Assembly (NCBI GenBank): GCA_002319925.1
Contig: DCFP01000094.1
Span: 13,839 to 39,987 of the forward strand
Origin: Holophagaceae bacterium UBA1801
GTDB lineage: Bacteria; Acidobacteriota; Holophagae; Holophagales; Holophagaceae
Direction: 5' to 3'
DNA: 26,149 nucleotides
In this document: positions 12,375-26,148 of the stretch, one piece after another
Layout: the number at the start of each line of letters is the position of its first letter
Position numbering within the stretch: position 1 is the stretch's first letter
Program-made: the position numbers and the translations under genes
The notes under the pieces: model-generated
Told to the model about the DNA's origin: nothing
Seen by the model: only the letters and a program-made list of their open reading frames with translations
The model's database searches: none

Positions 12375-12425
12375 GGAGCCGCAGCAAAATCAACTGAACT
12401 GCAATTTTTATTTTGACGCGGCTCC
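12375..12425. promoter_or_regulatory. 8-bp inverted repeat (ggagccgc / gcggctcc) bracketing a 35-nt AT-rich box upstream of the PATAN gene
   Basis: ggagccgc-agcaaaatcaactgaactgcaatttttattttgac-gcggctcc. A second palindrome cttgac-ca-gtcaag lies at ~12345-12358. The locally low GC is consistent with a promoter/operator. Confidence 0.3.
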
Positions 12426-12520
12426 TAACTTTCCGAAGAGTAGGAAGGATGCCCTTGATCAGCAGGGCGAGGAATGGCTACGATTCGCCAAGTGAAGACT
12501 TCTGGAGGGAACAAACAGGC

Positions 12521-13645
12521 ATGGGTTTGATGGGTGATCTGACCACGATGGGACTGGAAGACATCTTCCAGTGGCTGGCCGTGGGCAAGAAAACCGGCGT
12601 CCTCGAACTCAAGGGATTTCTCCACACCAAGCGGGTCTTCTTCCACGACGGCAAGGTCACCAGCGTCTGGTCCTCGGACCCCCGCGAATACCTGGGTCAG
12701 TATCTCCTCGCCTACAACCGCATCAACGAAGAGCAGTTGCGGGAAGCCCTGGCCTCCCAGGAAGACGAGAACCAGCTCCTGGGCCGCATCCTCGTCAACC
12801 GCCAGCTCATCACGGAGACCGAGATCCGGCGCATCGTGCAGTTGAAGGTGGAGGAATCCATCTACGACACCTTCCTGTGGGACATCGGCTCCTTCGAGTT
12901 CCACGATGGCCAGACGCCTCCCCAGAAGACCATGCTGTTGAGCCTGGATGTCACGGGCATCGTGCTGGAAGGCGCCCGGCGCGTGGACGAGTGGAAGCTG
13001 ATCCGGAGCGTCATCAAGGGCGGCGATGCGGTACTGGTGGCCGTTTCCGAAGCCATCGCCGAGATGCTGCCCCTGGCCCCCGAAGATGCGGATCTATTGG
13101 GACGGTTGGACGGACACAAGACCATCGATCAAGTGGTCATCGAGATGCGCGCCCCGGAATTCAAGGTGCACAAGCTGGTCTTCGACCTCCATGAAAAGGG
13201 CATGGTGCGCATCATCCGCCCCGGCGGCAAGCTGGGCGACCGTTCCAGCTTGCAGCTCCAGCGGGCGCGGCAACTGGTGGAAAAGCAGAAGCTCCAGGAA
13301 GCCCAGGAAGAGCTGCGGCTCATCCTCCATGATCAGCCCAAGCTCCAGGAAGCCACCCGCATGCTCGAAGTGGTGGAGCACCTGCTGGAGGAAGTGACCC
13401 TGGATGAGTCCCTGATTCCCGAGCTGGCAGTGAGCATCGAAGAGCTCATGCAGGCCCAGTTGGGCCCTAATGAAGCGTTCCTCGCCACCCGCGTGAACTC
13501 CGTCTGGAGCATCAAGGACATCATCTCCATCTCGCCTTTTCCCCACGACGAGTGCATGGCCATCTTTGCCAAACTGCTCAAGCGTGGGATTCTCAAGGCA
13601 CAGAAACCCCACGCAGGAGGAGCCCAGCCCGGTCTGCGGCGTTGA
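12521..13645 (+). CDS. PATAN/DUF4388 domain protein
   Basis: The N-terminal MGLMGDLTTMGLEDIFQWLAVGKKTGVLELKG matches the DUF4388 (PATAN) start (G-L-x-x-x-L-x-D-L-Q-x-L-x-x-x-K-T-G-x-L). The rest of the protein is long and helical. The start is set at the ATG at 12521 (GGAGG 12 nt upstream) rather than the track's 12413, which lies inside the IR/AT-box. Confidence 0.6.
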   Translation: MGLMGDLTTMGLEDIFQWLAVGKKTGVLELKGFLHTKRVFFHDGKVTSVWSSDPREYLGQYLLAYNRINEEQLREALASQEDENQLLGRILVNRQLITETEIRRIVQLKVEESIYDTFLWDIGSFEFHDGQTPPQKTMLLSLDVTGIVLEGARRVDEWKLIRSVIKGGDAVLVAVSEAIAEMLPLAPEDADLLGRLDGHKTIDQVVIEMRAPEFKVHKLVFDLHEKGMVRIIRPGGKLGDRSSLQLQRARQLVEKQKLQEAQEELRLILHDQPKLQEATRMLEVVEHLLEEVTLDESLIPELAVSIEELMQAQLGPNEAFLATRVNSVWSIKDIISISPFPHDECMAIFAKLLKRGILKAQKPHAGGAQPGLRR

Positions 13646-13673: not shown

Positions 13674-14375
13674 ATGCGCATGCTCGTTATCTGCACCTTG
13701 GCCGCATGGTTCGGTATCGCTCCGGCGATGGCGGCGCCCAAGGTGAAACCCCCCACGGTTGCGCAGCTCAAGACCCAGATCAAACAACTCACCCAGGAAC
13801 GGGACGACCTGAAGGACCGGCTCAAGGCCACGGAAGAACTGCAGCAGGACCTTGCCGCAGCCCAGAAGAGCCGGGACCTGGCACGGCAGAACGGCGATGC
13901 ACTGCAGAAGCAACTGGACGAGCTCAAGGCCTCCTTGGCGGAAAACCAGAGCGGCTCGGACGCCATCCTCAAGGAACTCCAGCAGGCCAAGGCCGATCTG
14001 GCCGCTTGCACCGTTGAGAAGGAAACCCTCCAGAAGAGTCTGGATGAAGCCACGGCCAAGGCCAATGCCCCGGCCGATCACCCGGTCGAACTGCCGGACA
14101 TCATCCCCGCCCGCGCCCTGAACCTCAACCGCGTGACGCCCAGCGTCCGGAACGTGAGCCGGGGCGTGGTGGTCGTCAACGTGCTCATCAACGAGAGCGG
14201 TGAAGTGCTCAACACCAAGCTCATCCAAGGCCTGCCCGGGAATGATATCGATGTGCAGAAGGCCAACGAGGCCTGCCTGGAAGCTGCCAAGCGCATTGTC
14301 TTCGACCCAGCCCGCTCCGCCGATGGCAAGACCAAGCTGAGGGTCTGGCAGGCCGTGGGCTTCCTGGTGAATTGA
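13674..14375 (+). CDS. Secreted coiled-coil protein with a TonB-C-terminal-like domain
   Basis: GGAGG 10 nt upstream of ATG. Signal peptide MRMLVICTLAAWFGIAPAMAAP, then ~110 aa of coiled coil (QLKTQIKQLTQERDDLKDRLKATEELQQDLAAAQ...), then a C-terminal ~90 aa resembling the TonB_C/energy-transducer fold (VVVNVLINESGEVLNTKLIQGLPGNDIDVQKANEACLEAAKRIVFDPARSADGKTKLRVWQAVGF). Confidence 0.55.
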   Translation: MRMLVICTLAAWFGIAPAMAAPKVKPPTVAQLKTQIKQLTQERDDLKDRLKATEELQQDLAAAQKSRDLARQNGDALQKQLDELKASLAENQSGSDAILKELQQAKADLAACTVEKETLQKSLDEATAKANAPADHPVELPDIIPARALNLNRVTPSVRNVSRGVVVVNVLINESGEVLNTKLIQGLPGNDIDVQKANEACLEAAKRIVFDPARSADGKTKLRVWQAVGFLVN

Positions 14376-14408
14376 TCCAAAGGCGACCTTTTCTATTGCG
14401 AGTCCTTA

Positions 14409-15302
14409 TCATGGTCCCGGCTGGATCGATCTCCGGACGTGTTCGAGAAAAGTCCTTTCGGCGTTTCCCAATTGCCTTCGCGGGTTCCACACGAGATGGG
14501 TGGCGAACTGGATCTCAGGGCCCTCCCAAGGGAGGGAAATGAGCCTTCCGGCGCGCAGCTCTTCCTCCACCGCCATCCGGGGCAAGGGCGCGATGCCGAG
14601 CCCCGCTTCAACACAACGCTTGATGGTCTCGACGCTCTGGAATTCCAGGCTCTGGCCAGGGTGCGCATCGGCGGCGATGAGCTGCCGCTCGAACTGATTG
14701 CGGTAGCTGCAGCCGAGGGCCTTGAGCAGCACCGACTCTCTCAGGAGGTCGTGGGCCGAGACACTTCGCGCCTTGGCCAGCCGGTGCGAAGGCGAGGCCA
14801 GGATCAGGATTTGTTCGTCCCTCAGCTTCTCCACGGCTAGCGTTTTGGAAGGAAAGGATTCCTCCAGGATGAAGGCCAGATCCACGACTCCTTCGAGCAC
14901 CTGACGCTTGAAATCCCGGACGAAGCCGGGAAAGAACTGCAGGCGCACATTGGGACATTGCTCCCTGAAGCCCATGAGGACGGGAGGCAGGAGATAGGTG
15001 CAGACCGTTTCCGGGGCCGTGAAGCGCAGGGTGCCGACACCCGCTCCATCCTCGGCCGAGAACGACTTGGCTTCCTCGACCAGGGCGAGGATGCGCTCCG
15101 CGTAGACCAGTAAACTCTCGCAGGGCTTGGCGAGCTCCAGGTGGTTCCCGACCCGGTTGAAGAGCAGGTAACCCAGGGACTCCTCCAGGTTCTTGATCTG
15201 GGTCGTCACGCTGGACTGAGCGTAGCCCAGGGATTCGGCTGCCCGGCTGAAGCTCAGCATGCGTGCGGCGGTGCTGAACGTGGACAGGGTGCGGATTTCC
15301 AT
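14409..15302 (-). CDS. LysR-family transcriptional regulator
   Basis: N-terminal wHTH MEIRTLSTFSTAARMLSFSRAAESLGYAQSSVTTQIKNLEESLG, followed by a LysR substrate-binding domain. Divergent from the MIO-lyase gene. Confidence 0.8.
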   Translation of the reverse strand: MEIRTLSTFSTAARMLSFSRAAESLGYAQSSVTTQIKNLEESLGYLLFNRVGNHLELAKPCESLLVYAERILALVEEAKSFSAEDGAGVGTLRFTAPETVCTYLLPPVLMGFREQCPNVRLQFFPGFVRDFKRQVLEGVVDLAFILEESFPSKTLAVEKLRDEQILILASPSHRLAKARSVSAHDLLRESVLLKALGCSYRNQFERQLIAADAHPGQSLEFQSVETIKRCVEAGLGIAPLPRMAVEEELRAGRLISLPWEGPEIQFATHLVWNPRRQLGNAERTFLEHVRRSIQPGP

Positions 15303-15384
15303 GGGACTAACCTCCGCCTTGCCTCCAATCCCTTTGCGCTCAACGCGACTCCCTCCGATTACATGGACGCGCCCCCAGTAGCAA

Positions 15385-15450
15385 ACAATTCGATTCCAGA
15401 TATCAAAACGATTCGCTTGTTCGATCCTCGATCCCGGATGACATTGGGAT
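15385..15450. promoter_or_regulatory. Candidate operator: four CGATYC direct repeats in the LysR / MIO-lyase divergent intergenic region
   Basis: cgattc appears at ~15391 and ~15419, and cgatcc twice at ~15433-15446, with a gatatc palindrome between the first two. They lie in the 219-bp divergent promoter region. Confidence 0.3.
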
Positions 15451-15521
15451 CATGGGCTGGGCTCTCTCGAAGCCCCGGTCTGAAAGAATCAAAGTTGGTG
15501 AATGAAATCTGGAGGCTGATC

Positions 15522-17150
15522 ATGCAGACCATTTCGATCGACGGCTTTTCCCTCACGCCGGAACTGGTTCTCCGGGTTGCCAGGCCTGAGCAGCCGGTGC
15601 AGGTGGTTCTGGCGCCCAGCGCGCGCAAGGCCCTGCAGGAGACTAGCGCGTTCATCGAGCGGACCTGGATGCACGACGAGGCGCCCCTCATGTACGGCTT
15701 CAACACAGGCGTGGGCCTGCTCAAGGACACCCGCGTAAAGGTCGAGCACATCGACCTCTTCCAGACCCAGCTTATCAATGCCCATGCGGCCGGGCTCGGC
15801 GAGCCCTTTCCCGAGGATGTCTGCCGGGCGGTGATGCTCCTGCGGGCGAACGCTTTGGCGAGCAATTTTTCCGGGGCCAGCGCCGACCTGCTGGATCGCC
15901 TGTTGGCATTCCTGAATGCCGGAATCCACCCGGTCATGCCGCAGAAGGGTTCGGTGGGAGCTTCTGGTGATCTCGCGCCCCTGGCCTATCTGGGAGCGGC
16001 CCTGGTGGGCTTCGAGGAGGCCGAGGTGATCTACCAGGGGCGGCGCATGTCCGCCCCCGAGGCGATCCGGGCGGCGGGCCTCTCCCCCGTCGTTTTCGAA
16101 CAGAAGGCCAAGGAAGCCTCGGCCATGATCAACGGATCTACGGTCTCCCTGGGGGTCGCTGTACTGTCCGCCTGGGATGCGCGCCACCTGCTGATGGACG
16201 CCTGCATTTCACTGGGGTTGACCCTCGAGGCCTTGCGGGCGGATCGCACGGCCTTCGATTCCCGTGTCCACAAGGCTCGCCCCCACAGAGGCCAGATCAA
16301 GACTGCGGATATCATTCGCAGGCTGCTCGAGGGTTCCACTCGCACCAGCCACGAGGCCCGCGCCGTCAAGCTGCCGGAGGAGCTCCGGCGCGCGGACCTG
16401 CCCTACACGCCCCGCATCCAGGACGTCTATTCCCTGCGCTGCTCGCCCCAGGTCTACGGCCCGGTCTTCGATGCCCTCGACCACATCGATGGCATCCTGG
16501 CGACGGAAATGAACTCCGCCACGGACAACCCGCTGATCTTTCCGAAGGAAGAAGGCGGTTTCGAGATCATGTCGGGCGGCAATTTCCACGGCCAGTACCT
16601 GGCCCAGGCCATGGACCTGATGGCCATGGCCATCGCTGATCTGGGCAGCATCTGCGAGCGGCGCATCGCGCGGCTCATCGATCCCTCGATGTCCTGGGGC
16701 CTGCCCCGCAACCTGATGTCCGGCGTTCCCGGCGTCAACACCGGCTACACGGTGGTGCAGTGTTCCATGAGCGCCCTCGTGATGGAGAACCGCACCCTCT
16801 GCATGCCCGGCAGCGTGGACAGCATCCCCGCCAAGGGCAACAGCGAGGACCACGTCTCCAACTCCACCTGGTGCGCCCGCAAGGCGTCCACGGTGATCGC
16901 CAATGTGCAGTACATCGTCGGCGTGGAGATGCTGCTGGCATCCCAGGGCATCACGATGACCGCGGCTCACCTCGAATCTTTCGTGCTCGGCAAGGGCATC
17001 CAGGCCGCCTACGACGAAGTGCGCAAACAGATTCCTGCTTGCCTGGAAGGCGACCGCTGGTACCACCGCGACATCGAAGTGGCGCGATCCTTCGTGCTGA
17101 CCGGGTCTGTGCGGAACGCTGTGGAATCGGTGCTAGGCAAGCTGGGATAG
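15522..17150 (+). CDS. MIO-dependent ammonia-lyase/aminomutase family enzyme (histidine ammonia-lyase-like)
   Basis: GGAGG 6 nt upstream of the ATG at 15522. The MIO-forming Ala-Ser-Gly triad sits in GSVGASGDLAPLAYL. The YGFNTGVG motif has an NTG as in HAL (PAL/TAL carry TTG). The length is 542 aa. Substrate specificity is not resolvable by eye. Confidence 0.8.
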   Translation: MQTISIDGFSLTPELVLRVARPEQPVQVVLAPSARKALQETSAFIERTWMHDEAPLMYGFNTGVGLLKDTRVKVEHIDLFQTQLINAHAAGLGEPFPEDVCRAVMLLRANALASNFSGASADLLDRLLAFLNAGIHPVMPQKGSVGASGDLAPLAYLGAALVGFEEAEVIYQGRRMSAPEAIRAAGLSPVVFEQKAKEASAMINGSTVSLGVAVLSAWDARHLLMDACISLGLTLEALRADRTAFDSRVHKARPHRGQIKTADIIRRLLEGSTRTSHEARAVKLPEELRRADLPYTPRIQDVYSLRCSPQVYGPVFDALDHIDGILATEMNSATDNPLIFPKEEGGFEIMSGGNFHGQYLAQAMDLMAMAIADLGSICERRIARLIDPSMSWGLPRNLMSGVPGVNTGYTVVQCSMSALVMENRTLCMPGSVDSIPAKGNSEDHVSNSTWCARKASTVIANVQYIVGVEMLLASQGITMTAAHLESFVLGKGIQAAYDEVRKQIPACLEGDRWYHRDIEVARSFVLTGSVRNAVESVLGKLG

Positions 17151-17383
17151 GTAGAGAGCGGACCCTCTAAAGCCCTTTCATCGCCAGGTTTGCAGCCTTA
17201 CCCCCCATGACCACTCCATGGGTGGCCCAGGATCTGTTTGACCAAATCGGAACGGGGCCGTGAAGAAGCTTCTGGGTCGCAGGTCGCTGGGACCCAACTG
17301 GTAAATGGACCTGTCCATGATCATCCACCACTGGGATGTACCACCACACCGCCCCGATCAACATGCTTTACTGGCTTCACTAG

Positions 17384-17746
17384 GCGCTGCGTCTGGTGCT
17401 TGATGAAGGGAAAAACAAGGTCTTTGCTCGCCACCTGGAATGTCGTGCACGCTTGGTCGACGGCTTGCAAGCTCTAGGCCTGAAGATGCTGGTGGAGCCC
17501 GCCTCGCGGCTGCCCATGCTCAACTCCGTGGTCATCCCGGAGGGAGTCGATGACGCGAAAGTCCACAGAGCCCTGCGCATCAAACACAACATCGAAATCG
17601 GTGGCGGGCTTGGTTCTCTGGCCGGAAAGATCTGGAGGATCGGGACGATGGGGCACACCGCGTGGCCGGAGAATGTCGACCGGATCTTGGCGGCGCTGCG
17701 CAGCAAACTCATGCATGGCCAAGAAGCTCTGCTTCGTAGCGCATGA
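17384..17746 (+). pseudogene. Class-V aminotransferase (serine-pyruvate / alanine-glyoxylate type) C-terminal fragment, 5'-truncated remnant
   Basis: The frame opens right after an in-frame TAG at 17381-17383. The translation VFARHLECRARLVDGLQALGLKMLVEPASRLPMLNSVVIPEGVDDAKVHRALRIKHNIEIGGGLGSLAGKIWRIGTMGH matches only the C-terminal small domain of AGXT/SPT-type aminotransferases. No frame in 17151-17383 encodes the N-terminal PLP domain. Confidence 0.6.
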
Positions 17747-17835
17747 TTCGGGTTGGGACTCGTCGAGAATCAGGAAGCGGTTCTCGATTCGTGGGGTCGT
17801 GGTGATGAGCACTTCCCTCTGAAGACCAAGCAATA

Positions 17836-18120
17836 TCAATCGACCCGGCAGCAGACCTCGCCCTGGGAATAGGTCTGGCACGCCAGGCGCTGGTTCTGTC
17901 TGGCCTTGAGGATCCGCAGAATCCGCGCTTCGACGGTTCCCACCGGGGAGAGCTGGTCCTGGCCCTCTTCGACGGTGACGAGGCAGGTCCCACAGCGGGC
18001 GTGGCCCCTGCAGCGCTGGGTGAGGGCGATCCCGGCCTTGTTGGCTGCCACCAGCAGGCTGTTCTCCTTCCCCAGTTCCACTTCCACCGCGACCTTGCCC
18101 CTGAATGTGACCTTGTACAT
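17836..18120 (-). CDS. Small 2Fe-2S ferredoxin-like protein
   Basis: 94-aa protein MYKVTFRGKVAVEVELGKENSLLVAANKAGIAL..CRGHARCGTC...LACQT with a plant/adrenodoxin-type Cys pattern (C-x5-C-x2-C...C) in a beta-grasp-like sequence. GAGG lies 4 nt upstream of the ATG at 18120. The track's longer 165-aa version has a low-complexity Gly/Arg/Ser N-terminus that I judge untranslated. Confidence 0.55.
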   Translation of the reverse strand: MYKVTFRGKVAVEVELGKENSLLVAANKAGIALTQRCRGHARCGTCLVTVEEGQDQLSPVGTVEARILRILKARQNQRLACQTYSQGEVCCRVD

Positions 18121-18161
18121 GCATCCTCGCGAAGCCGGCCTGCTGGCCGCACCTGTCAGTC

Positions 18162-18217
18162 TAGTGTAGCCCGCTGGAAATACGTGAATCATCCCTAGCT
18201 CTTTACCAGGGCTACAC
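18162..18217. promoter_or_regulatory. Inverted repeat tagtgtagccc / gggctacac(gtg) with a 36-nt spacer in the ferredoxin / SRPBCC divergent region
   Basis: The 9-bp arms gtgtagccc / gggctacac are perfect. Further GC-rich palindromes follow (cccccaggggg; cctctg-cggccgc-cagagg) within the 296-bp divergent intergenic region. Confidence 0.3.
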
Positions 18218-18416
18218 GTGGCAGGGGTCTGGAGGCACGGCAGTGCCCCCAGGGGGTGACAGGCCGTGGAGGCGCTGCCTCTGCGGCCGCCAGAGGGGCC
18301 TCGCCCCGATGGAGATGCACCCCGCCCGACCACTCAACGTTCGATGTAATCGACCCAGGCGGGGTGCATCAGGCCATGAATATGTAAACCCCAAACGATC
18401 GGGTAAACTGGTGAGT

Positions 18417-18833
18417 ATGTGGCACACCGAGCACACCCTTGAGACCACCACGGAGCCGGAGGCCATCTGGCGCCGCTACGAGGACGTCTGTGGCTGGCCG
18501 GACTGGGACGAGGGTCTGGAATGGGCGCGGCTGCTGGGTCCACTCAAGGTGGGCAGCGCGGGCAGCCTGAAGCGCAAGGGCGGGCTCCGTCAGCGATTCA
18601 TGGTGGTGGAGGTCAATGAGGGCCGGGGATTCACGTGCATCGGCCGGAAGCTGCTGACCCACATGCGCCTCGTCCACAGCGTCGAGCCCAGTTCCCTGGG
18701 CAGCCGCGTCACCCACCGGGTGGAAGTGCAGGGTCCCATGGCCTGGTGGCTGCAGCTCACCATGGCCCGCCGGATCCGCCAGACCTTGGCCCCCGCCGTA
18801 CGGAAACTGGCACGCATCGCCGGAAGACACTGA
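18417..18833 (+). CDS. SRPBCC superfamily (polyketide cyclase/dehydrase-like, START/Bet v1 fold) protein
   Basis: 138 aa, MWHTEHTLETTTEPEAIWRRYEDVCGWPDWDEGLEWARLLGPLKVGSAGS.... The N-terminal E.IW..Y.D...WP.W pattern is typical of Polyketide_cyc2/SRPBCC ligand-binding proteins. Confidence 0.55.
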   Translation: MWHTEHTLETTTEPEAIWRRYEDVCGWPDWDEGLEWARLLGPLKVGSAGSLKRKGGLRQRFMVVEVNEGRGFTCIGRKLLTHMRLVHSVEPSSLGSRVTHRVEVQGPMAWWLQLTMARRIRQTLAPAVRKLARIAGRH

Positions 18834-18834
18834 A

Positions 18835-19188
18835 TTGGCGGATGCGCAATCGACACCTGAAGTCGTGGTCCAGCGGCAGCTGGAGGCCTACAACCGTCAC
18901 GACCTGGACGCCTTCTTGGCCTGCTACGGCGAGGACGCCCGGGTCTACCGGATCCCGAATCCAGACCCAACGCTTGCGGGCCGTATTCGGATCGGGGTGC
19001 ACTATGCGGCCCATCGGTTCAATGTCCCTGAGTTGCGCGCCGAAATCCTGAGCCGGATGAAGCTCGGCAACAAGGTCATCGATCACGAACGGGTGACTGG
19101 TCTTCCCGATAGTCCGGTGGAAGTGGTTGCCATCTATGAAGTCGTGGATGGCCTGATCCAGAACGTCTGGTTCGTCCAGCCCCACTGA
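18835..19188 (+). CDS. SnoaL/NTF2-like fold protein
   Basis: 117 aa. VVQRQLEAYNRHDLDAFLACYGEDARVY is the classic SnoaL-like N-terminus. The TTG start sits 1 nt after the SRPBCC stop, so the two are translationally coupled. Confidence 0.5.
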   Translation: MADAQSTPEVVVQRQLEAYNRHDLDAFLACYGEDARVYRIPNPDPTLAGRIRIGVHYAAHRFNVPELRAEILSRMKLGNKVIDHERVTGLPDSPVEVVAIYEVVDGLIQNVWFVQPH

Positions 19189-19208
19189 TTCCGTATCCGG
19201 AGCCGATC

Positions 19209-19805
19209 ATGAAGTCCATCCGAAGCGCGATGCTGACCTCGATTCTTCTTGTGGGCACGGTCATCGCCCCAAGTTTCGCCCAGGAAATCCAGGCCAAGCC
19301 CCAGCCCTGCGACACCTGCTTGCCGGGCATCATCAACTTCGCCAAGGTGTCCGATGCGCTATGGCGCGGCGCCCAGCCCACGGTGGAGGGTTTCCAGAAC
19401 CTGGAGAAGATGGGCGTGAAGACCATCGTGAGCTTCCGCCACGACCACGACGATCTGGCCCTGATGAAGGGCACCCACCTGAAGTACCTGCGGATCTCCT
19501 CCCGCGCCTATCGTCCGACCAAAGCGAACGTGACCCACTTCCTCAAAGTGATGGAAGATCCGGCCAACTGGCCCGTCTTCGTCCATTGCGCCCAGGGCCG
19601 CGACCGCACAGGCTACAACACGGCGGCCTACCGCATGGTTTACCAGGGCTGGCAGGCCGAAGATGCGATCCAGGAAATGCACACCTTCCACTTCAACCGC
19701 ATCTGGTTCTGGGATCCCCACTTCGTCCGGGAGTTGAATTCGGGAGAACTCAAGGAACGGCTGAAGACGGAGCCGCAGCCTGTGTTCCAGAGCCCCGCGC
19801 CGTGA
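19209..19805 (+). CDS. Secreted protein-tyrosine/dual-specificity phosphatase family protein
   Basis: Signal peptide MKSIRSAMLTSILLVGTVIAPSFA|QE. Catalytic P-loop VHCAQGRDRTGY (CX5R[S/T]). Confidence 0.7.
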   Translation: MKSIRSAMLTSILLVGTVIAPSFAQEIQAKPQPCDTCLPGIINFAKVSDALWRGAQPTVEGFQNLEKMGVKTIVSFRHDHDDLALMKGTHLKYLRISSRAYRPTKANVTHFLKVMEDPANWPVFVHCAQGRDRTGYNTAAYRMVYQGWQAEDAIQEMHTFHFNRIWFWDPHFVRELNSGELKERLKTEPQPVFQSPAP

Positions 19806-20626
19806 CATCCAGTCGCAGGATTCTCTTCGTCAGCCTGACCGTGGTTCTGGGGATGATCGCCCTGGCAGGGGGCGGCGCGCTCGCTTACTATCTGCGCCAC
19901 AAAGCCACGGAAGTCAGCGCCGATGCCGGAGCGGATGTCTCCGAGGCCGATGCCGGTCCCGTGGGCCAGGTGTTTCCGGGCTTGAAGAGCGAAGAACTCC
20001 TGCCCAAGTTCAAGCCATCCATCGAGGGCGTGGATTGGGAACTCATGCTGGCCAAGCCTTTCCAGCAGTCCGGGAAAACCTATGCAGTGGCGGTCTTCGC
20101 CACCTACGATCTGGACGACCAGGGCAAACGGGTGGATGCACATGCCAACGGCGCAAACCTCTGCCCGGCCCTCTTCGTGCAGGAATCGAGCGGCGGGTGG
20201 CGCTGCCTGGAATTCAAGGACGACTTCACCCGCGCGGGTTCCTGGGGGAACTCGGGGGACGTGGAACTGGTCAGGTTGGGACCCGATCGATGGGGTCTTT
20301 CCGTGACCACTGGCTTCACGAATCAGGGCGTGACATCGTCCAGCGCCAGCTACTACGAGTTCGGACGCCTCCCTGAAACGGGTGCCACTCCGACCCTGCA
20401 ACTCAAGGATGTCCTGGATCTCACCAACTCCCTCGACAATGGCGGCGTGGTTGACGATGGGGACGCGGCCGAGAGTTGGGGAACGAAGACAGCTTTCCTG
20501 CCCAAGGTGGTGAACGAGCATTTCGTCATTTCCGTCCAGCCCGATGGTGAGCTACCCGAAGGTAGCGAAGCGCCTGTGGGAACATACGAATTCTCGCCAG
20601 CTGCTGGGATCTACAAGAAGCAATAG
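19802..20626 (+). CDS. Membrane-anchored hypothetical protein with an extracytoplasmic domain
   Basis: The GTG start overlaps the phosphatase stop (ccGTGA). An N-terminal TM anchor RRILFVSLTVVLGMIALAGGGALAYYL precedes a ~230-aa Gly/Asp/Ser-rich domain with no recognisable motif. Coding-like G/C at third codon positions. Confidence 0.45.
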   Translation: MTSSRRILFVSLTVVLGMIALAGGGALAYYLRHKATEVSADAGADVSEADAGPVGQVFPGLKSEELLPKFKPSIEGVDWELMLAKPFQQSGKTYAVAVFATYDLDDQGKRVDAHANGANLCPALFVQESSGGWRCLEFKDDFTRAGSWGNSGDVELVRLGPDRWGLSVTTGFTNQGVTSSSASYYEFGRLPETGATPTLQLKDVLDLTNSLDNGGVVDDGDAAESWGTKTAFLPKVVNEHFVISVQPDGELPEGSEAPVGTYEFSPAAGIYKKQ

Positions 20627-20633
20627 CGGATTG

Positions 20634-22364
20634 TCAGCGCCAGGTTGCGAAGGTCTTGCGGAATTCCTGCAACACTTCCTCCGCCGCCCTGAGTCCATGA
20701 TCCTGGGCCTCTTCGAAGAGGGCAAAGCCTGATAAGTCCGAGTGGGCGAAGTGGATGTTCTGGAAGGGCACTCGCGCTTTTTCGAGTACATCGCTCCACA
20801 TGAAGTGCGGTCGTGGGCGGATCATGGCGTGGGCCCAGCGCATGACGTCGATGCGCGAGATGCATGATTCGAGATCCGGATGGGCGATGCGCAGATCGTC
20901 CAGGATGAAGCGGACGCAATCGCGCCAAGAGACGCTGTAGAGCCGTTCCCAGTCGGAGCGGATATCCGCGCCCGCCAGGGCATGGTAGAAGGTCCAGACC
21001 GTGGGGCCGTGATCGCGCAGGCTCTGGTGGGTATCCACTACGTAGCCCAGGCCCTTGCCGTCCCGGATGACGTTGTCCCAGGCCATGGAGAAAAAATGTT
21101 CCTTGGGCCGTTCGCGCAGCGTCAGGTTGGACACGATCCAGGAGCTGGGCAGGAATTCCTGGAAGAAGGCTCGGCCCCGGGCGCGGGCCAATTCGGGAAT
21201 CACGCGGCCCGCCATGATCATGGAGCCCGCGAAGATCACGCGCTTGGCTGCGAAGCCGAGGGCGCACCGCTGGACGGCATCCCAGGCCAGGACCTTCACC
21301 TTGCCGTTCTCAGTGGTGATCCGCGTGACGGCGATGCCGGTGCGCACCTGCTCCTTGCAGCGCTCGTAGAGATGATTTACCAGGAAGCCGTTCCCCTCGG
21401 GCCAGGTGAGCACCGGGCGGGTCTCTTCCTTCGGATGGGATTTGCGCGCGGCGAAGTAATAGATGCCAGCCCAGGCGCTGGTGGTCTCGGGCCGCGCGCC
21501 GTAGTCGTCGCGGCAGGCGTAGTCCATGAGCCAACGGAGCCGCTTGGAGTCGAGGCCTCGCGCGTCGAGCCAGTCCTTGAAACTCATGGTGTCCAGCGCG
21601 CGCACCTCTGCGTCATCGGAACCCTTGGAACGGGGCACGGCAAAGGCCCTGTGGCCTTTGGCATCCCGCCAGAGCACCCATCGATCCACTTCGTCGAAGA
21701 AGGCCTTGTACTGACGGATGTCCTCGGGGCTTTCTCCGGCATGGAGATACAGGCCTTCCCACCACTGTCCCACGGCGAAGATGCGCTCCTCGGGACTCCG
21801 CACCAGGTGCTCCTCACCGAAGATGGGCTCGTCCTTGGCGTCGTAGCCCTCGATGACACCCGCTTCCTCCAGCAGCCGGATCATGGGCACGGTCTCGCGG
21901 GTGGGCGCCACCACATAGTGGGCAGCCAGCGGATAGGCGCTGACGCCGTTCCGCCCCGAGCGCGCCGTGCCGCCCACACCGGATTCCAATTCCAGCAGTG
22001 TGAAGTCCTCGAAGCCCGCGCCCTTCAAGCGCCAGGCCGCGGAAAGGCCCGCGATGCCGCCGCCTACGATGACCACATCGATGGGTTCGAAGGATGAAGG
22101 AGCGGGCAGATCGCCATCCCGCGCGGCATGACCGAGATCGACGGAAGGTCCGATCAGATCGCCGTCGAAGGTGAATTCTACTTTCTGGCTTTTGCAGGCA
22201 AGGTCCACGAGGGGAATCGCCGCGGAGGCAGCAAGGAAGGTTCGGCGCTTCACGTCAGGACCACCGGTTCCATTCACGGGGCCCCCTCCGTGATCGCAAG
22301 CCAACGGCGCAGCGGGAGCGGGAGCAAAGCACAGTGCGCTTTGCGATCGGGGGGTAGTCCACAT
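20634..22364 (-). CDS. Tat-signal FAD-dependent oxidoreductase (amine-oxidase / FAD-NAD(P)-binding superfamily)
   Basis: Twin-arginine motif KRRTFLAASAAI. Rossmann dinucleotide fingerprint DVVIVGGGIAGLSAAWRL. The ATG at 22364 lies 3 nt after the upstream gene's stop (TGAaccATG). An alternative GTG start at 22253 would put the RR motif at the N-terminus. Confidence 0.75.
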   Translation of the reverse strand: MWTTPRSQSALCFAPAPAAPLACDHGGGPVNGTGGPDVKRRTFLAASAAIPLVDLACKSQKVEFTFDGDLIGPSVDLGHAARDGDLPAPSSFEPIDVVIVGGGIAGLSAAWRLKGAGFEDFTLLELESGVGGTARSGRNGVSAYPLAAHYVVAPTRETVPMIRLLEEAGVIEGYDAKDEPIFGEEHLVRSPEERIFAVGQWWEGLYLHAGESPEDIRQYKAFFDEVDRWVLWRDAKGHRAFAVPRSKGSDDAEVRALDTMSFKDWLDARGLDSKRLRWLMDYACRDDYGARPETTSAWAGIYYFAARKSHPKEETRPVLTWPEGNGFLVNHLYERCKEQVRTGIAVTRITTENGKVKVLAWDAVQRCALGFAAKRVIFAGSMIMAGRVIPELARARGRAFFQEFLPSSWIVSNLTLRERPKEHFFSMAWDNVIRDGKGLGYVVDTHQSLRDHGPTVWTFYHALAGADIRSDWERLYSVSWRDCVRFILDDLRIAHPDLESCISRIDVMRWAHAMIRPRPHFMWSDVLEKARVPFQNIHFAHSDLSGFALFEEAQDHGLRAAEEVLQEFRKTFATWR

Positions 22365-22367
22365 GGT

Positions 22368-23912
22368 TCATGACCAGCGGTTCCATTCTTCTGCGTAGAG
22401 GTGCACCAGCACTTGGTTATCCAGGCGGTTCACCTCCACGGGCACGCGGTCCATGTCCTTGGGGAAGACGAACATGGATGCCATGGACTCGTCGGATAGG
22501 TGGCGCAGGTTCGGCAGAGTATGTCGTGGAATGTCGAAGGGCGCAGGGCTCGCGAGGACGAAGCCCCAGACGCTGAAGGAAGGCACGGCGAGGTGGTAGG
22601 GCCGTGCCTGGAAGCCCGCGGCTTCCACGGTGGCATCGATGCACCAGAAGGACTTCCTCGCCATGAGTGGCGAGGTGCACTGGATGGAGGCAACGCCATC
22701 CGGCGCGAGCTGACGCTTCAGCAGTTTGTAGAACCGCGTGGTGAACAGTTTTCCGACGGCGTAGGTGTTGGGATCCGGAAAGTCCACAATGGCGATATCG
22801 AAAGGCGGTTCGCCTTTTCGTTCCGCGATCCAAACCATGGCATCCGCGTTGATGACCTTCACGCGCGGGTCCAGCAGGGACCCGCCATTGAGTTCCCGCA
22901 GCAGCGGCATCTTCGTGGCCAGCTCTGTCACCAGTGGATCCAAATCCACCAGCACCACCTCCTTCACTTCGGGGTGCTTCAGGATTTCTCTCACGGCCAA
23001 GCCATCGCCACCGCCACACACGAGCACGCGCTGAGCGTGGGGTTTCACGGCGAAGGCCGGATGCACGAGGGCTTCGTGGTAACGGTATTCGTCCGCCGAC
23101 GAGAACTGCAGGTTGCCGTTGAGGAAGAGCTGGAAGCTGCCGCGGCCGCGGGTGAGCACGATGCGCTGGTACGGGGAATCCTTCGCGTAGACGATCTCGT
23201 CCGTGAAGATCTCTTCTTCCGCTGCGAGGGTGAAGCGATTCGCGCCGATCACGCCTGCGGCGAGGAATACAAGGACGACGGCGCTGCGGAGGCGCAGCCC
23301 GAAGGTCGGCCCGATCTGGGATTGCAGCAGGTACGTGGACCAGAGGCCCACGATGGCGTTCAGCATGCCGAAGGCGAGACTCGTGCGCACAAGGCCCAGC
23401 TTGGGCATGAGCAGCAGCGGGAAGAGCAGGGAGGCGGCCAGGGCACCGATGTAGTCGAGGGTCAGGACCTGGGCGATGAGATCCTTGAAGCGCACCTGGT
23501 GGCGCAGGATCCGCATGAGCAGCGGGATTTCCAGCCCCACCAGCACGCCGATGGCGACGACGATCCCGTAGAGGGAAGGGCGGAAGGCGTGGGTGCGCGC
23601 GAAGGAGAGGAACAGGATCGGCGCGGAAAAGCCGCCCACCAGCGCCACGGCCAGTTCCAGGTCCACGAAGCGTCGGGCGAGTCCCTTGTGGATGTGCTTG
23701 GAGAGGTAGGAGCCCAGGCCCATGGCGCTGAGGTAGACGCCGATCACCGTGGAGAACTGCATGACGGAATCGCCCAGCAGGTAGCTGGCCAAGGTGCCCG
23801 CCACCAGCTCGTAGACCAGGCCGCAGGCGGCGATGATAAAGACGCTGATGAAGAGGAGGGAGGCTTTCAGGGGCTGGCTGGAGCGCGTGTCCAGGACTTC
23901 CAGATCATCCAT
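22368..23912 (-). CDS. Membrane-fused polyamine aminopropyltransferase (spermidine/spermine synthase with a ~220-aa N-terminal polytopic TM domain)
   Basis: About seven predicted TM helices are followed by a SpeE catalytic core: VLVCGGGDGLAVREILKHPEVKEVVLVDLDP (the GGGDGG..RE motif), IVDFPDP and VKVINADAM. The start overlaps the upstream DUF350-like gene by 8 nt. Confidence 0.8.
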   Translation of the reverse strand: MDDLEVLDTRSSQPLKASLLFISVFIIAACGLVYELVAGTLASYLLGDSVMQFSTVIGVYLSAMGLGSYLSKHIHKGLARRFVDLELAVALVGGFSAPILFLSFARTHAFRPSLYGIVVAIGVLVGLEIPLLMRILRHQVRFKDLIAQVLTLDYIGALAASLLFPLLLMPKLGLVRTSLAFGMLNAIVGLWSTYLLQSQIGPTFGLRLRSAVVLVFLAAGVIGANRFTLAAEEEIFTDEIVYAKDSPYQRIVLTRGRGSFQLFLNGNLQFSSADEYRYHEALVHPAFAVKPHAQRVLVCGGGDGLAVREILKHPEVKEVVLVDLDPLVTELATKMPLLRELNGGSLLDPRVKVINADAMVWIAERKGEPPFDIAIVDFPDPNTYAVGKLFTTRFYKLLKRQLAPDGVASIQCTSPLMARKSFWCIDATVEAAGFQARPYHLAVPSFSVWGFVLASPAPFDIPRHTLPNLRHLSDESMASMFVFPKDMDRVPVEVNRLDNQVLVHLYAEEWNRWS

Positions 23913-24126
23913 GGATGGAGGCGGCGATGATCAGGGAGATACCCAGGATCAGGCTTCCCAGGACGATGCCAAGGGCGATGTTCTGGTCCACCTCCATCTC
24001 CTTGCGCAGCGAGAAGGGCAGGATCTTCACCATGATCGCCCACACGATGCCGAGGATGGCGAGACCCAGGATGCAGAATATCGAGGCCGTCAACAGCGGC
24101 CGCCAGAGCGTGGTCATTAGATCCAT
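23905..24126 (-). CDS. DUF350-like small two-TM membrane protein
   Basis: 73 aa, MDLMTTLWRPLLTASIFCILGLAILGIVWAIMVKILPF..EMEVDQNIALGIVLGSLILGISLIIAASIHG. It has two TM helices and an N-x-A-x-G-I motif. AGGAG lies 8 nt upstream. Its position directly 5' of the membrane SpeE matches the DUF350 context I recall from other genomes. The track's longer 132-aa version is a low-complexity extension. Confidence 0.5.
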   Translation of the reverse strand: MDLMTTLWRPLLTASIFCILGLAILGIVWAIMVKILPFSLRKEMEVDQNIALGIVLGSLILGISLIIAASIHG

Positions 24127-24178
24127 CACGTGTCTCCTCTGAATCCGGAAGGGAGAAAATACGGTTTGTGAATCGCGG

Positions 24179-24358
24179 CTACTTTCCGCCGCGGAAACCG
24201 TGGTTGTGCAGGAAGGTTCGGTAGCCGCCGGGAGTCTGCCGGACGCTGGGCGGGAGTTCCATGCGCTGGTGATCGCCGAAGAACTCGTGGCCGAGGAAGG
24301 CATTGGTGCCCAGGAATCCGAAGCTTCCCGCCAGGACGAGCAAATAGAAGGTGCGCAT
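24179..24358 (-). CDS. Unannotated 59-aa small protein: hydrophobic N-terminus (signal or TM) followed by a His-rich tail
   Basis: MRTFYLLVLAGSFGFLGTNAFLGHEFFGDHQRMELPPSVRQTPGGYRTFLHNHGFRGGK. The ATG overlaps the DUF4178 stop codon as TGATG (translational coupling). About 49 of 59 codons end in G or C, consistent with coding in this genome. The tail after the hydrophobic segment carries 5 His in 36 residues. Confidence 0.45.
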   Translation of the reverse strand: MRTFYLLVLAGSFGFLGTNAFLGHEFFGDHQRMELPPSVRQTPGGYRTFLHNHGFRGGK

Positions 24359-26148
24359 CAGTCGTCGTCTCCGGAGGAACTGCTGGAAAACGAGCTCTCC
24401 TGCCAGCGGCGGTTCTCGAAGGCCATGGCCCTGATCCAGGCCAGGACGGGAACCACGAGGATGCCGAGGGCCGCGAGAAAACCATAAAGCCATCGCGTGA
24501 TGCCGCTGCGCAGCTCCACGCTGAAGGTGGAGACCGGCGGGAGCTTGCCGTCCCACACGGGCGCGATACGCAGGACGTACCTGCCTGGAGGAACCGACGA
24601 GAGATACACCGTCTCCGAGGTGTTGCCCTCGGTCCAGGCTCCGTCTTCATCAGAGCCGTGGTAGTAGCTGGAGGCCACCTCGAACAGCTCAGTGGCACCC
24701 GTGGTCTCGCTCACCAGGGCACCCTCGATGCCGATCCAGTTGTTGTCCACAGGGGCGTTGAGGGTAACGGAGAAATTCTTGTGGCCATCCGCGATCTCGA
24801 AGGGTTCCGTGAAGAAGACTGGTTCGAGGGGATTCTCGGGAGCCGCGGCCGGAGGCGGAGTATCCGTTGCAGGGGCGGGTGCTGGCGCTGTTGCTGGCGC
24901 CTGACCCTGCGCAAGGGCCTTGAGGGCGGGCACCCGCTCGAAGATGTTGTAATCCTCTTTGTAGAGCAGCTTCTCGCGATGGGTGGCCACTTCCCAGGCC
25001 AGTGCGGTCACGAGCAGCGCGAAGGCCGCCACCATCCAGAGGCCCATCTGGCGCGCGGTCTTCCAGTGGGGATTGGGCTGATGGGGTGCGATGCCCTGGG
25101 GCGATGGCGGCGAGCCTTTGAGCTTGAAGGCCTTCCAGATCTCGCTGCCCTGCAGGTAGGTGCTCTTCGACCAGTTCACTTCCTCGCCACCGCCGGGTTG
25201 GCGCTGAATTTCCTCCGCGAGGCTGATGGGAGCTTTGACGTACTCCGTGACCTGGACCCGCTCACCCTGTTCCACCTTCCAGTAGAATTCGCCGTAGACG
25301 CCCTCCACCACGGCCTCCGTGTGCTGGAAGGCACGGTAGTGTTCGCCCTTGTATTCGATGGTCCGCCCACCTGCGCCGGTCCGGCGCAGATCGCCGAGAT
25401 TCATCGCTTCGGCCAGGCTCCAGTGGCCATCGCTTTCCACGAGCCACTTGAACCCGTGATGGGAATCGAGCATCAGGTACTCGCCCCAGGGATACCGTGT
25501 GCCCTCCACCGTACACGAGCGCAGCAGGTACCCGATGCACGTGAGCGGAATCCCGTTGAGTACGCCATCCGTGCCGAGGGGGATGAACATGCGCGGATCG
25601 GGTTGTTTCAGGGATTTCAGGTAAGTGAGGCGGCCCTCGGAGGCATCCAGCAGACTGCCGCAGGAGGCGCAGACCACATGCTGGGCCTGATCGGGTGCCC
25701 GCAAGGGCAGAGGGGCTGCGCATTTCGGGCAGGCCAAGCCCTGGGTCTTCAGTTTCGGCACCGGTGGCGGCCCGCTGGGGGGAAGCTTCAACTTCAAATC
25801 CTCGAAGGGAATTTCCCGGCCCACGAAGAAAAGTGGTGATTCCTCGGAGTAGTCGAGGGTCGCGAAGGCGCCGTTGGGTCCATTGAGATCCGCAAAGCGG
25901 TAGGATCCGCCAAGATCCACGGCCCAAGGGATTTCGCCCTCGGCCGAGGCGAAGGTTCCCTGACTCACCTCGGCGACCATCCAGAGGCCTTGATCGCCCA
26001 GGTTCACGGTGCCGCCTGCCAGCAGGCCTTCCGGTGCAGGAATGGCAGCCGTCACGGCGTGGGCAAAGGTCAGGTAGAAGCGGCCCTGGGCCTCCGCCAG
26101 CCAGCCCCAGCGGCCATCGTCGAGGGCCAGGTACCACTCGTCCCACAC
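24358..26148 (-). CDS. DUF4178-like two-domain membrane protein with a zinc-ribbon, 5' partial (N-terminus lies beyond the window end)
   Basis: The ORF is open to the window edge. CxxC...CxxC zinc ribbon CPKCAAPLPL..(14)..CASCGSLLD. Repeated ~130-aa modules are separated by a TM helix (LWMVAAFALLVTALAW) and a Pro/Ala-rich linker. A second TM helix sits near the C-terminus, followed by an acidic Ser-rich tail SSFSSSSSGDDD. The domain family is assigned from memory of the architecture and gene neighbourhood, not from a search. Confidence 0.55.
   Translation of the reverse strand: MWDEWYLALDDGRWGWLAEAQGRFYLTFAHAVTAAIPAPEGLLAGGTVNLGDQGLWMVAEVSQGTFASAEGEIPWAVDLGGSYRFADLNGPNGAFATLDYSEESPLFFVGREIPFEDLKLKLPPSGPPPVPKLKTQGLACPKCAAPLPLRAPDQAQHVVCASCGSLLDASEGRLTYLKSLKQPDPRMFIPLGTDGVLNGIPLTCIGYLLRSCTVEGTRYPWGEYLMLDSHHGFKWLVESDGHWSLAEAMNLGDLRRTGAGGRTIEYKGEHYRAFQHTEAVVEGVYGEFYWKVEQGERVQVTEYVKAPISLAEEIQRQPGGGEEVNWSKSTYLQGSEIWKAFKLKGSPPSPQGIAPHQPNPHWKTARQMGLWMVAAFALLVTALAWEVATHREKLLYKEDYNIFERVPALKALAQGQAPATAPAPAPATDTPPPAAAPENPLEPVFFTEPFEIADGHKNFSVTLNAPVDNNWIGIEGALVSETTGATELFEVASSYYHGSDEDGAWTEGNTSETVYLSSVPPGRYVLRIAPVWDGKLPPVSTFSVELRSGITRWLYGFLAALGILVVPVLAWIRAMAFENRRWQESSFSSSSSGDDD

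Follow-up and report, generated by a model that had tools for sequence, protein, structure and literature searches.

The window analyzed here, a stretch of 26,149 nucleotides from Holophagaceae bacterium UBA1801 (contig DCFP01000094.1, positions 13,839 to 39,987), carries an insert in which a gene for an ammonia-lyase dependent on 4-methylideneimidazole-5-one (MIO) is accompanied by a divergent gene for a LysR-type regulator and is followed by the remains of a class-V aminotransferase (AT) gene. The insert is a lineage-specific mosaic; its LysR and lyase do not travel together elsewhere. We give about an even chance to a history in which a glyoxylate module of LysR and AT came first and the 5' half of the AT was then replaced by the lyase, a probable histidase. 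The features, in window coordinates, are as follows.

14379..17835, no strand: lineage-specific mosaic insert of 3457 bp (LysR, lyase and AT remnant), delimited by blastn against five relatives
14409..15302, minus strand: intact gene of a LysR-type regulator, 297 aa, with Pfam domains HTH_1 (57 bits) and LysR_substrate (180 bits)
15303..15521, no strand: divergent control region of 219 bp between LysR and lyase, read from the sequence
15389..15404, minus strand: candidate operator motif of the LysR family, GATATCTGGAATCGAA, the sole match in the window to GATNNNTGGAATCGRA
15522..17150, plus strand: intact gene of an MIO-dependent ammonia-lyase, 542 aa, PF00221 (Lyase_aromatic), with a predicted active site of the histidine ammonia-lyase (HAL) type
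17218..17746, plus strand: pseudogene, the C-terminal ~176 codons of an AGXT-family class-V AT, traced by tblastn with intact homologues
13674..14375, plus strand: left flank, conserved coiled-coil/TonB-C-like gene of the core genome (62-69% aa identity, syntenic in L045-L052)
17836..18120, minus strand: right flank, conserved 2Fe-2S ferredoxin gene of the core genome (Pfam Fer2, 60-71% aa identity, syntenic in relatives)

The junctions were located by blastn against five sequenced relatives (L045, L046, L047, L050 and L051), whose homology to the window stops at 14375-14378 and restarts at 17836, and therefore the whole block of LysR, lyase and remnant represents a lineage-specific insertion. 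It sits between two convergent core genes (TonB-like and ferredoxin), with sharp edges at both flanking stop codons. According to gene calls, the order CofD-PatA_N-TonB-like is kept in all eight relative contigs (L045-L052 and the contig with P0242). After the TonB-like gene comes either the convergent ferredoxin gene (gap of 7-130 bp), a PilZ gene or a non-coding, unrelated stretch of ~600 bp; in the three contigs beyond the five used for blastn, the calls give only a PilZ gene or nothing at the site. The insertion site is thus variable among relatives and is a hotspot of the flexible genome. Neither the 600-bp gap of L051/L052 nor window positions 17747-17835 yielded a remnant of PilZ or AT when searched for one. 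The original prediction had proposed that a regulator-plus-lyase cassette was inserted into an ancestral AT gene; the insertion is borne out, but the relatives have neither an intact nor a truncated AT between the TonB-like and ferredoxin genes, so the AT is not ancestral there and belongs to the insert.

The insert lacks the recombinase, tRNA target and flanking repeats that would mark it as a mobile genomic island: a tRNA scan and an Rfam scan of the window gave no match, no meaningful direct or inverted terminal repeats were detected at the insert ends, and Pfam scans revealed no integrase, transposase or recombinase domain among the annotated open reading frames (ORFs) of the window. Codon usage and GC3 of LysR and lyase were indistinguishable from those of host genes, and the AT remnant had the lowest adaptation. 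The range 14700-23141, which starts within LysR and extends through the amine oxidase gene, recurs with 100% identity in a Logan assembly made independently (L001); since this range covers the junctions of lyase, remnant and ferredoxin, a chimeric right junction is ruled out.

The regulator, the broken aminotransferase and the mosaic insert

Orthologues of the LysR were found by a representative search and a metagenome scan at 48 loci with 54-78% identity. Their divergent partners include malate synthase (A-like), a glyoxylate-carboligase-like thiamine pyrophosphate enzyme, hydroxypyruvate isomerase (which exceeds its NCBIfam cut-off), Ldh_2 and a lactate/glycolate permease, and these partners suggest a role related to glyoxylate/glycolate and not to histidine. 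The permease operon divergent from LysR also holds, on its own strand, a class-V AT (BhcA/PhnW/AGXT superfamily) in four of the loci (L068, L069, L071 and L074). Because the family faces glyoxylate/glycolate genes and sometimes class-V ATs, the window LysR is more likely to have been the former partner of the AT. The LysR itself reached no NCBIfam equivalog cut-off (best score 142 bits versus 250).

The motif GATNNNTGGAATCGRA, allowing at most two mismatches, occurs in a fixed orientation upstream of 20 of 33 LysR orthologues and in 2 of 584 control windows. The window copy at 15389-15404 has the same orientation relative to LysR as in the orthologues, and its preservation in the LysR-lyase intergenic region implies that LysR brought its own operator. 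In terms of gene order, the window lyase fills a slot that elsewhere is held by a putative glyoxylate-pathway gene.

No lyase was found in the 48 LysR orthologue loci, and no LysR of the window type in about 45 loci with homologous lyases, in which the LysR genes that do adjoin the lyase encode proteins only 27-29% identical to that of the window. The predicted pairing of LysR and lyase as a cassette is thus contradicted, although the divergent arrangement at 14409-15302 had been described correctly. An AT of the remnant's type was likewise absent within 8 kb of the lyase in the ~45 lyase loci, and a relaxed search gave one distant class-V AT-like match (24% identity, in L017).

The AT gene had been described as only the last ~115 codons of a class-V enzyme; it is indeed truncated and on the lyase strand, but six-frame translation and tblastn traced ~176 of ~380 codons. 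The segment 17330-17710 matches intact homologues at 63-68% identity, and it includes most of an open frame of 116 codons (17396-17746) homologous to the class-V transaminase C-terminus. Upstream of it, a second frame (17218/17257-17337; E-values from 9.5e-5 to 0.026) reads 'GGPGSV*PNRNGAVKKLLGRRSLGPNW*MDLSMIIHHW' and was aligned to '...PPGLSPVTFGPAAVKAL..RKTPV.SWYLDLSM..YW'. Four lesions were recognized, namely TGA at 17239-41, TAA at 17302-04, a frameshifting deletion at ~17335-38 and TAG at 17381-83, and the last 121 codons are open. Homology begins ~67 bp past the lyase stop, the N-terminal half was found nowhere in the window by tblastn, and NCBIfam pyridoxal phosphate (PLP) transaminase models are matched by the remnant in their C-terminal part only. 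The expected Schiff-base lysine position reads His or is degraded, and the remnant is incomplete as a class-V AT. Judged by these features, the AT is a non-functional pseudogene. Its closest intact orthologues are at most 68% identical and are mostly short metagenome fragments that offer no usable context.

Several additional observations were made on the remnant. The decay is uneven, with all four lesions in the first ~55 codons (a rough chance estimate, (55/176)^4, is ~1%), and the Logan gene call gives an 86-aa ORF in this region. A candidate PLP-lysine motif, 'SGPSKALSSPGLQP' (~17157-17198), right after the lyase stop, was rejected, the tblastn frame starting near 17218 with 'GGPGSV*PNRNGAVKKL'.

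The most likely history, as far as one can be inferred, is that an older module of LysR and an AGXT-type AT was altered by a lyase segment that captured the LysR-controlled promoter. The divergent LysR-aminotransferase glyoxylate module would have come first; a gene-sized piece with the lyase ORF alone would then have replaced the promoter-proximal half of the AT, the promoter under LysR control would thereby have come to stand before the lyase, and the 3' half of the AT, now left without its start, would have decayed since.

Active site of the lyase and the contexts of its clade

The lyase gene is complete. PF00221 covers the protein fully (534.6 bits, profile positions 1-466 of 466), both termini agree with the family, a GGAGG ribosome-binding site (15511-15515) lies 6 nt before the ATG, and the MIO triad Ala147-Ser148-Gly149 is present within GSVGASGDLAPLAY (nt 15960-15968). 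The best NCBIfam model is TIGR01225 (hutH) with 505 bits versus an equivalog cut-off of 539.15, and NF006871 scores 503 bits versus 524. The models of mutases, tyrosine ammonia-lyase (TAL) and phenylalanine ammonia-lyase (PAL) reach 150-368 bits versus cut-offs of 500-1250, the aminomutase models among them being TIGR03832 (368 versus 501), TIGR04475 (346 versus 800) and TIGR04473 (152 versus 1250).

The closest PDB match is HAL of Pseudomonas putida (PpHAL, 40% identity), in which Y53, R283, N195 and A142-S143-G144 align to Y58, R306, N204 and A147-S148-G149 of the window lyase. In an alignment of 143 clade members, equivalents of the HAL residues Y53, H83, A142-S143-G144, N195, Q277, Y280, R283, F329 and E414 are kept; in window numbering these are Y58, H88, A147-S148-G149, N204, Q300, Y303, R306, F355 and E442. 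The imidazole-binding positions are particularly stable, H88 (His83) in 142 of 143 members and E442 (Glu414) in 143 of 143. The selectivity dyad is Ala87-His88, aligned to PpHAL Ser82-His83, and is neither the His-Leu of TAL nor the Phe-Leu of PAL; its equivalence to RsTAL His89-Leu90 follows alignments from the literature (Watts et al. 2006, cited through PMC9002059) and general background. The predicted active site is therefore HAL-type and not that of a TAL, PAL or mutase, and the original suggestion of a TAL, PAL or aminomutase does not survive. With hutH as the top NCBIfam model, PpHAL as the top PDB match and all HAL residues conserved, the lyase is a probable histidase, and this is most likely how it works. 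The MIO electrophile formed from Ala-Ser-Gly would bind the substrate amine, Tyr58 would take the beta-proton, and the imidazole would be held by His88 and Glu442, and the products would be ammonia and urocanate (or a close imidazole-acrylate analogue).

The clade also has features of its own, including the pocket changes S82A, M382P/T and Q413S relative to HAL and an extra 14-16 aa before the QDxYSLR motif throughout. It is tight (72-79% aa identity over the full length) and taxonomically patchy, spanning Noviherbaspirillum, Herbaspirillum, Glaciimonas, Massilia, Cystobacter fuscus, a Mesoterricola MAG (metagenome-assembled genome) and metagenome contigs. No hutU, hutI or hutG gene adjoins it in ~45 homologous loci, and Pfam found no hut-type domain (urocanase, imidazolonepropionase or formiminoglutamase-type) in the main ORFs of the 26-kb window, in agreement with the initial statements that hut genes are missing from the vicinity and that the enzyme is not the histidase of a hut operon. 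The lyase is accordingly placed, by sequence and context, as a predicted non-housekeeping paralogue.

At about 28 loci from Oxalobacteraceae, a pair is formed by puuD, the gene of a membrane cytochrome-c urate oxidase, and the lyase gene after it (for example L049 6777-9629 and L003 6596-9623; set L005-L041); divergent from the pair is a LysR gene whose product shares 27-29% identity with the window LysR. PuuE, an OHCU-decarboxylase/AllC fusion, xanthine dehydrogenase (Xdh) and HIUase are encoded nearby, and in L003 an Aminotran_5 gene lies at a distance of 7.6 kb from the lyase. No published explanation for the puuD-lyase pairing in purine clusters was found. In about nine other loci, the lyase lies directly 3' of a gene for an M20 'Zn-dependent hydrolase' resembling AllC, an arrangement recorded for L002, L024, L029, L033, L037, L039, L043, L044 and L137 5633-8614. 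A GntR regulator is usually encoded there as well, and L002 and L029 have in addition a polar-amino-acid ABC transporter. The same hydrolase-lyase pairing occurs on Agrobacterium vitis plasmids with a 45%-identical lyase relative; a search of the plasmid database for mobile copies gave a best match of 47% identity. The hydrolase-lyase pairing suggests catabolism of an N-substituted histidine-like compound.

A third context, in loci that are all non-Oxalobacteraceae, is an OYE-family reductase (OYE, old yellow enzyme; Oxidored_FMN) immediately 5' of the lyase, with a 4-bp gap or overlap (L004 844-3581, L135 7904-10689 and L136 1690-4435). L004 is labelled Mesoterricola, L136 is syntenic with it, and in L136 a XerC/D-like tyrosine recombinase adjoins the pair. 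The window shares 78-80% nucleotide homology with these loci, limited to the lyase ORF (15538-17125), and no OYE remnant was detected upstream of the window lyase. OYE and lyase may form a route from histidine via urocanate to imidazole-propionate, with an OYE-type and not a UrdA-type urocanate reductase. Literature searches returned nothing relevant on HAL-like enzymes encoded in purine clusters or on urocanate reductases of the OYE type, and no characterized member of the clade was found in the literature.

In a neighbor-joining tree, the window lyase pairs with P0031, outside the Oxalobacteraceae group. A direct transfer from Oxalobacteraceae to Holophagaceae was dropped, since the tree does not nest the window sequence in Oxalobacteraceae. 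The Cystobacter fuscus lyases (L018 and L040, 77-78% identical, with a MarR regulator and an FAD monooxygenase upstream) nest inside Noviherbaspirillum sequences in this tree, and appear to derive from an inter-phylum transfer of this gene on a separate occasion.

Weighing the explanations

Several points weigh against the replacement history and the histidase assignment. Control of the lyase by LysR is argued from position and the operator motif only, and no match to the sigma-70 consensus was detected in 15303-15521. The LysR loci contain no LysR adjoining an AT of the remnant's own subfamily, the ATs that do occur there share no more than 22-29% identity with relatives of the remnant, no intermediate state with LysR and an intact AT is known, and the order of events is not readable from one genome. 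Host-like codon usage gives no independent sign of a foreign origin for LysR or lyase. As for function, the lyase is below the hutH equivalog cut-off (505 versus 539), it has the family-specific pocket changes and the 14-16-aa insertion described above, and its contexts (urate oxidase, M20 hydrolase and OYE) are unlike histidine catabolism, so that histidine may not be the true substrate.

That the lyase is not a histidase is rather unlikely. It would then act on an aromatic amino acid (as a TAL, PAL or aminomutase, feeding secondary metabolism) or on an imidazole amino acid that is modified or atypical and is tied to the breakdown of urate or to OYE-type reduction. This reading draws on the sub-threshold hutH score, on the conservation of S82A, M382P/T, Q413S and the extra loop across the clade, and on the conserved puuD, AllC-like M20 hydrolase and OYE contexts in place of hut genes; however, an aromatic substrate is contradicted by the Ala-His dyad, the conserved Glu414 and the low scores of the mutase, TAL and PAL models. 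A modified imidazole meets no contradiction, though nothing positive points to one. A related and similarly tentative proposal, doubtful at present, is that the whole clade represents a functionally distinct MIO enzyme and not a spare histidase. The substrate that its members deaminate may be an imidazole amino acid of a non-canonical kind with a link to ureide/glyoxylate metabolism, or they may, with the OYE partner, provide the new route to imidazole-propionate outlined above; the window lyase would then have been rewired under a glyoxylate-responsive LysR.

With regard to the history, the three genes could have been imported as one block from an unsampled donor in which lyase and AT once cooperated, for instance in a ureide/glyoxylate-linked pathway, the AT being truncated on integration or decaying later. 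Such en-bloc import remains a serious rival, as the search turned up no LysR accompanied by an intact AT from the remnant's subfamily, although we consider it improbable on balance. The sharp insert edges at both flanking stop codons, the occurrence of the lyase clade in purine-to-glyoxylate clusters of Oxalobacteraceae (with the Aminotran_5 gene of L003 7.6 kb off) and the glyoxylate theme of the LysR family are all compatible with it. On the other side stand the absence of a remnant-type AT within 8 kb in the ~45 lyase loci (with the one distant 24% match in L017), the lack of any integrase, tRNA or flanking repeats, and the complete loss of the AT 5' half with homology only from ~67 bp after the lyase stop, which fits replacement better than decay.

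The insertion of a pre-formed LysR-plus-lyase cassette into an AT already resident at the site is very unlikely. The divergent arrangement of LysR and lyase, in which the lyase stop is followed directly by the truncated AT, would agree with it, and the Oxalobacteraceae lyase operon is likewise divergent from a LysR gene; but that regulator, which controls puuD-lyase, has no more than 27-29% identity to the window LysR, the orthologues of the window LysR never adjoin a lyase, and no AT is present at the site in the five sequenced relatives or in the gene calls of three more contigs, so that synteny largely refutes this explanation. Finally, a metagenomic or MAG-type source raises the question of chimeric junctions, and an assembly artefact is nonetheless close to negligible in probability, given the independent Logan assembly, 100% identical over 14700-23141, and given that the longest contig on record measures 50,236 bp both for LysR and for the anchor gene to the left of the insert and is presumably one and the same.

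If the favored replacement history holds, the window is a clean, datable case of a flexible-genome hotspot assembling a new regulatory unit, in which a foreign ORF was set behind an existing LysR-controlled promoter and the original target gene was sacrificed, which is instructive and unsurprising. This would be ordinary genome tinkering, and the lyase clade with its PuuD, M20 and OYE partners is the more interesting lead: it is well populated, highly conserved, HAL-like and systematically linked to PuuD, to amidohydrolases of the AllC kind or to OYE reductases. Should the clade act on something other than plain histidine, or should OYE and lyase together make imidazole propionate, a step would be added to purine/ureide or histidine metabolism.

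Neighboring genes and comparison with known systems

The anchor gene (12413-13645), encoding a DUF4388/PatA_N protein, shares 90-96% identity with Holophaga/Holophagaceae MAG proteins and 83-84% with those of Geothrix and Holophaga foetida. On the other side of the insert, the ferredoxin, SRPBCC and SnoaL genes named in the original prediction are present, but the secondary-metabolism cluster that they were taken to hint at is not supported, as ferredoxin and SRPBCC belong to the core in relatives without the lyase. In L046 (11874-12156), the ferredoxin gene beside the hotspot seems to be frameshifted (two tblastn pieces and no gene call). A second variable patch (window 18834-20633) lies between the conserved SRPBCC and amine-oxidase genes and includes the SnoaL gene and a 274-aa ORF without counterpart in relatives, and a PTP-like gene 48% identical in L045. 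The block 20634-26148 is common to relatives. Its genes encode a flavin amine oxidase, a protein of 514 aa with a spermine/spermidine-synthase domain and a DUF4178 protein, which in relatives is accompanied by DUF350; the block may represent a polyamine-related module that has nothing to do with the insert.

Compared with known systems, the window lyase shares with HutH (PpHAL, PDB 1GKM/1B8F; TIGR01225) the PF00221 fold, the Ala-Ser-Gly MIO and the catalytic residues, but differs in being only 40% identical, in its score (505 versus 539 bits), in the pocket substitutions S82A, M382T and Q413S and the 14-16-aa insertion, and in having no hutU/I/G neighbors. It resembles the clade annotated as 'HAL/PAL/TAL family ammonia-lyase / HutH2' most closely (72-79% identity, the same insertion and pocket residues), whereas its position behind a glyoxylate-type LysR and before a dead AT is found in the window alone. 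With RsTAL, SgTAM, AdmH and PAL it has MIO chemistry and the overall fold in common (E-values from 1e-82 to 1e-42), and it is set apart from TAL, PAL and aminomutases by the Ala-His dyad, the retained Glu414 equivalent and family scores far below cut-off. The regulator is similar to LysR regulators of divergent catabolic operons in its HTH_1 and LysR_substrate domains, its divergent layout and the candidate operator in the shared intergenic region, but reaches no NCBIfam equivalog cut-off. The remnant is closest to the alanine/serine-glyoxylate AT family (nearest models BhcA, PhnW and pyridoxamine-pyruvate transaminase), its last 121-127 codons being 63-68% identical to intact PF00266 members, and unlike AGXT-type ATs it has three stops, one frameshift and a missing or degraded N-terminal half, including the PLP-lysine region.

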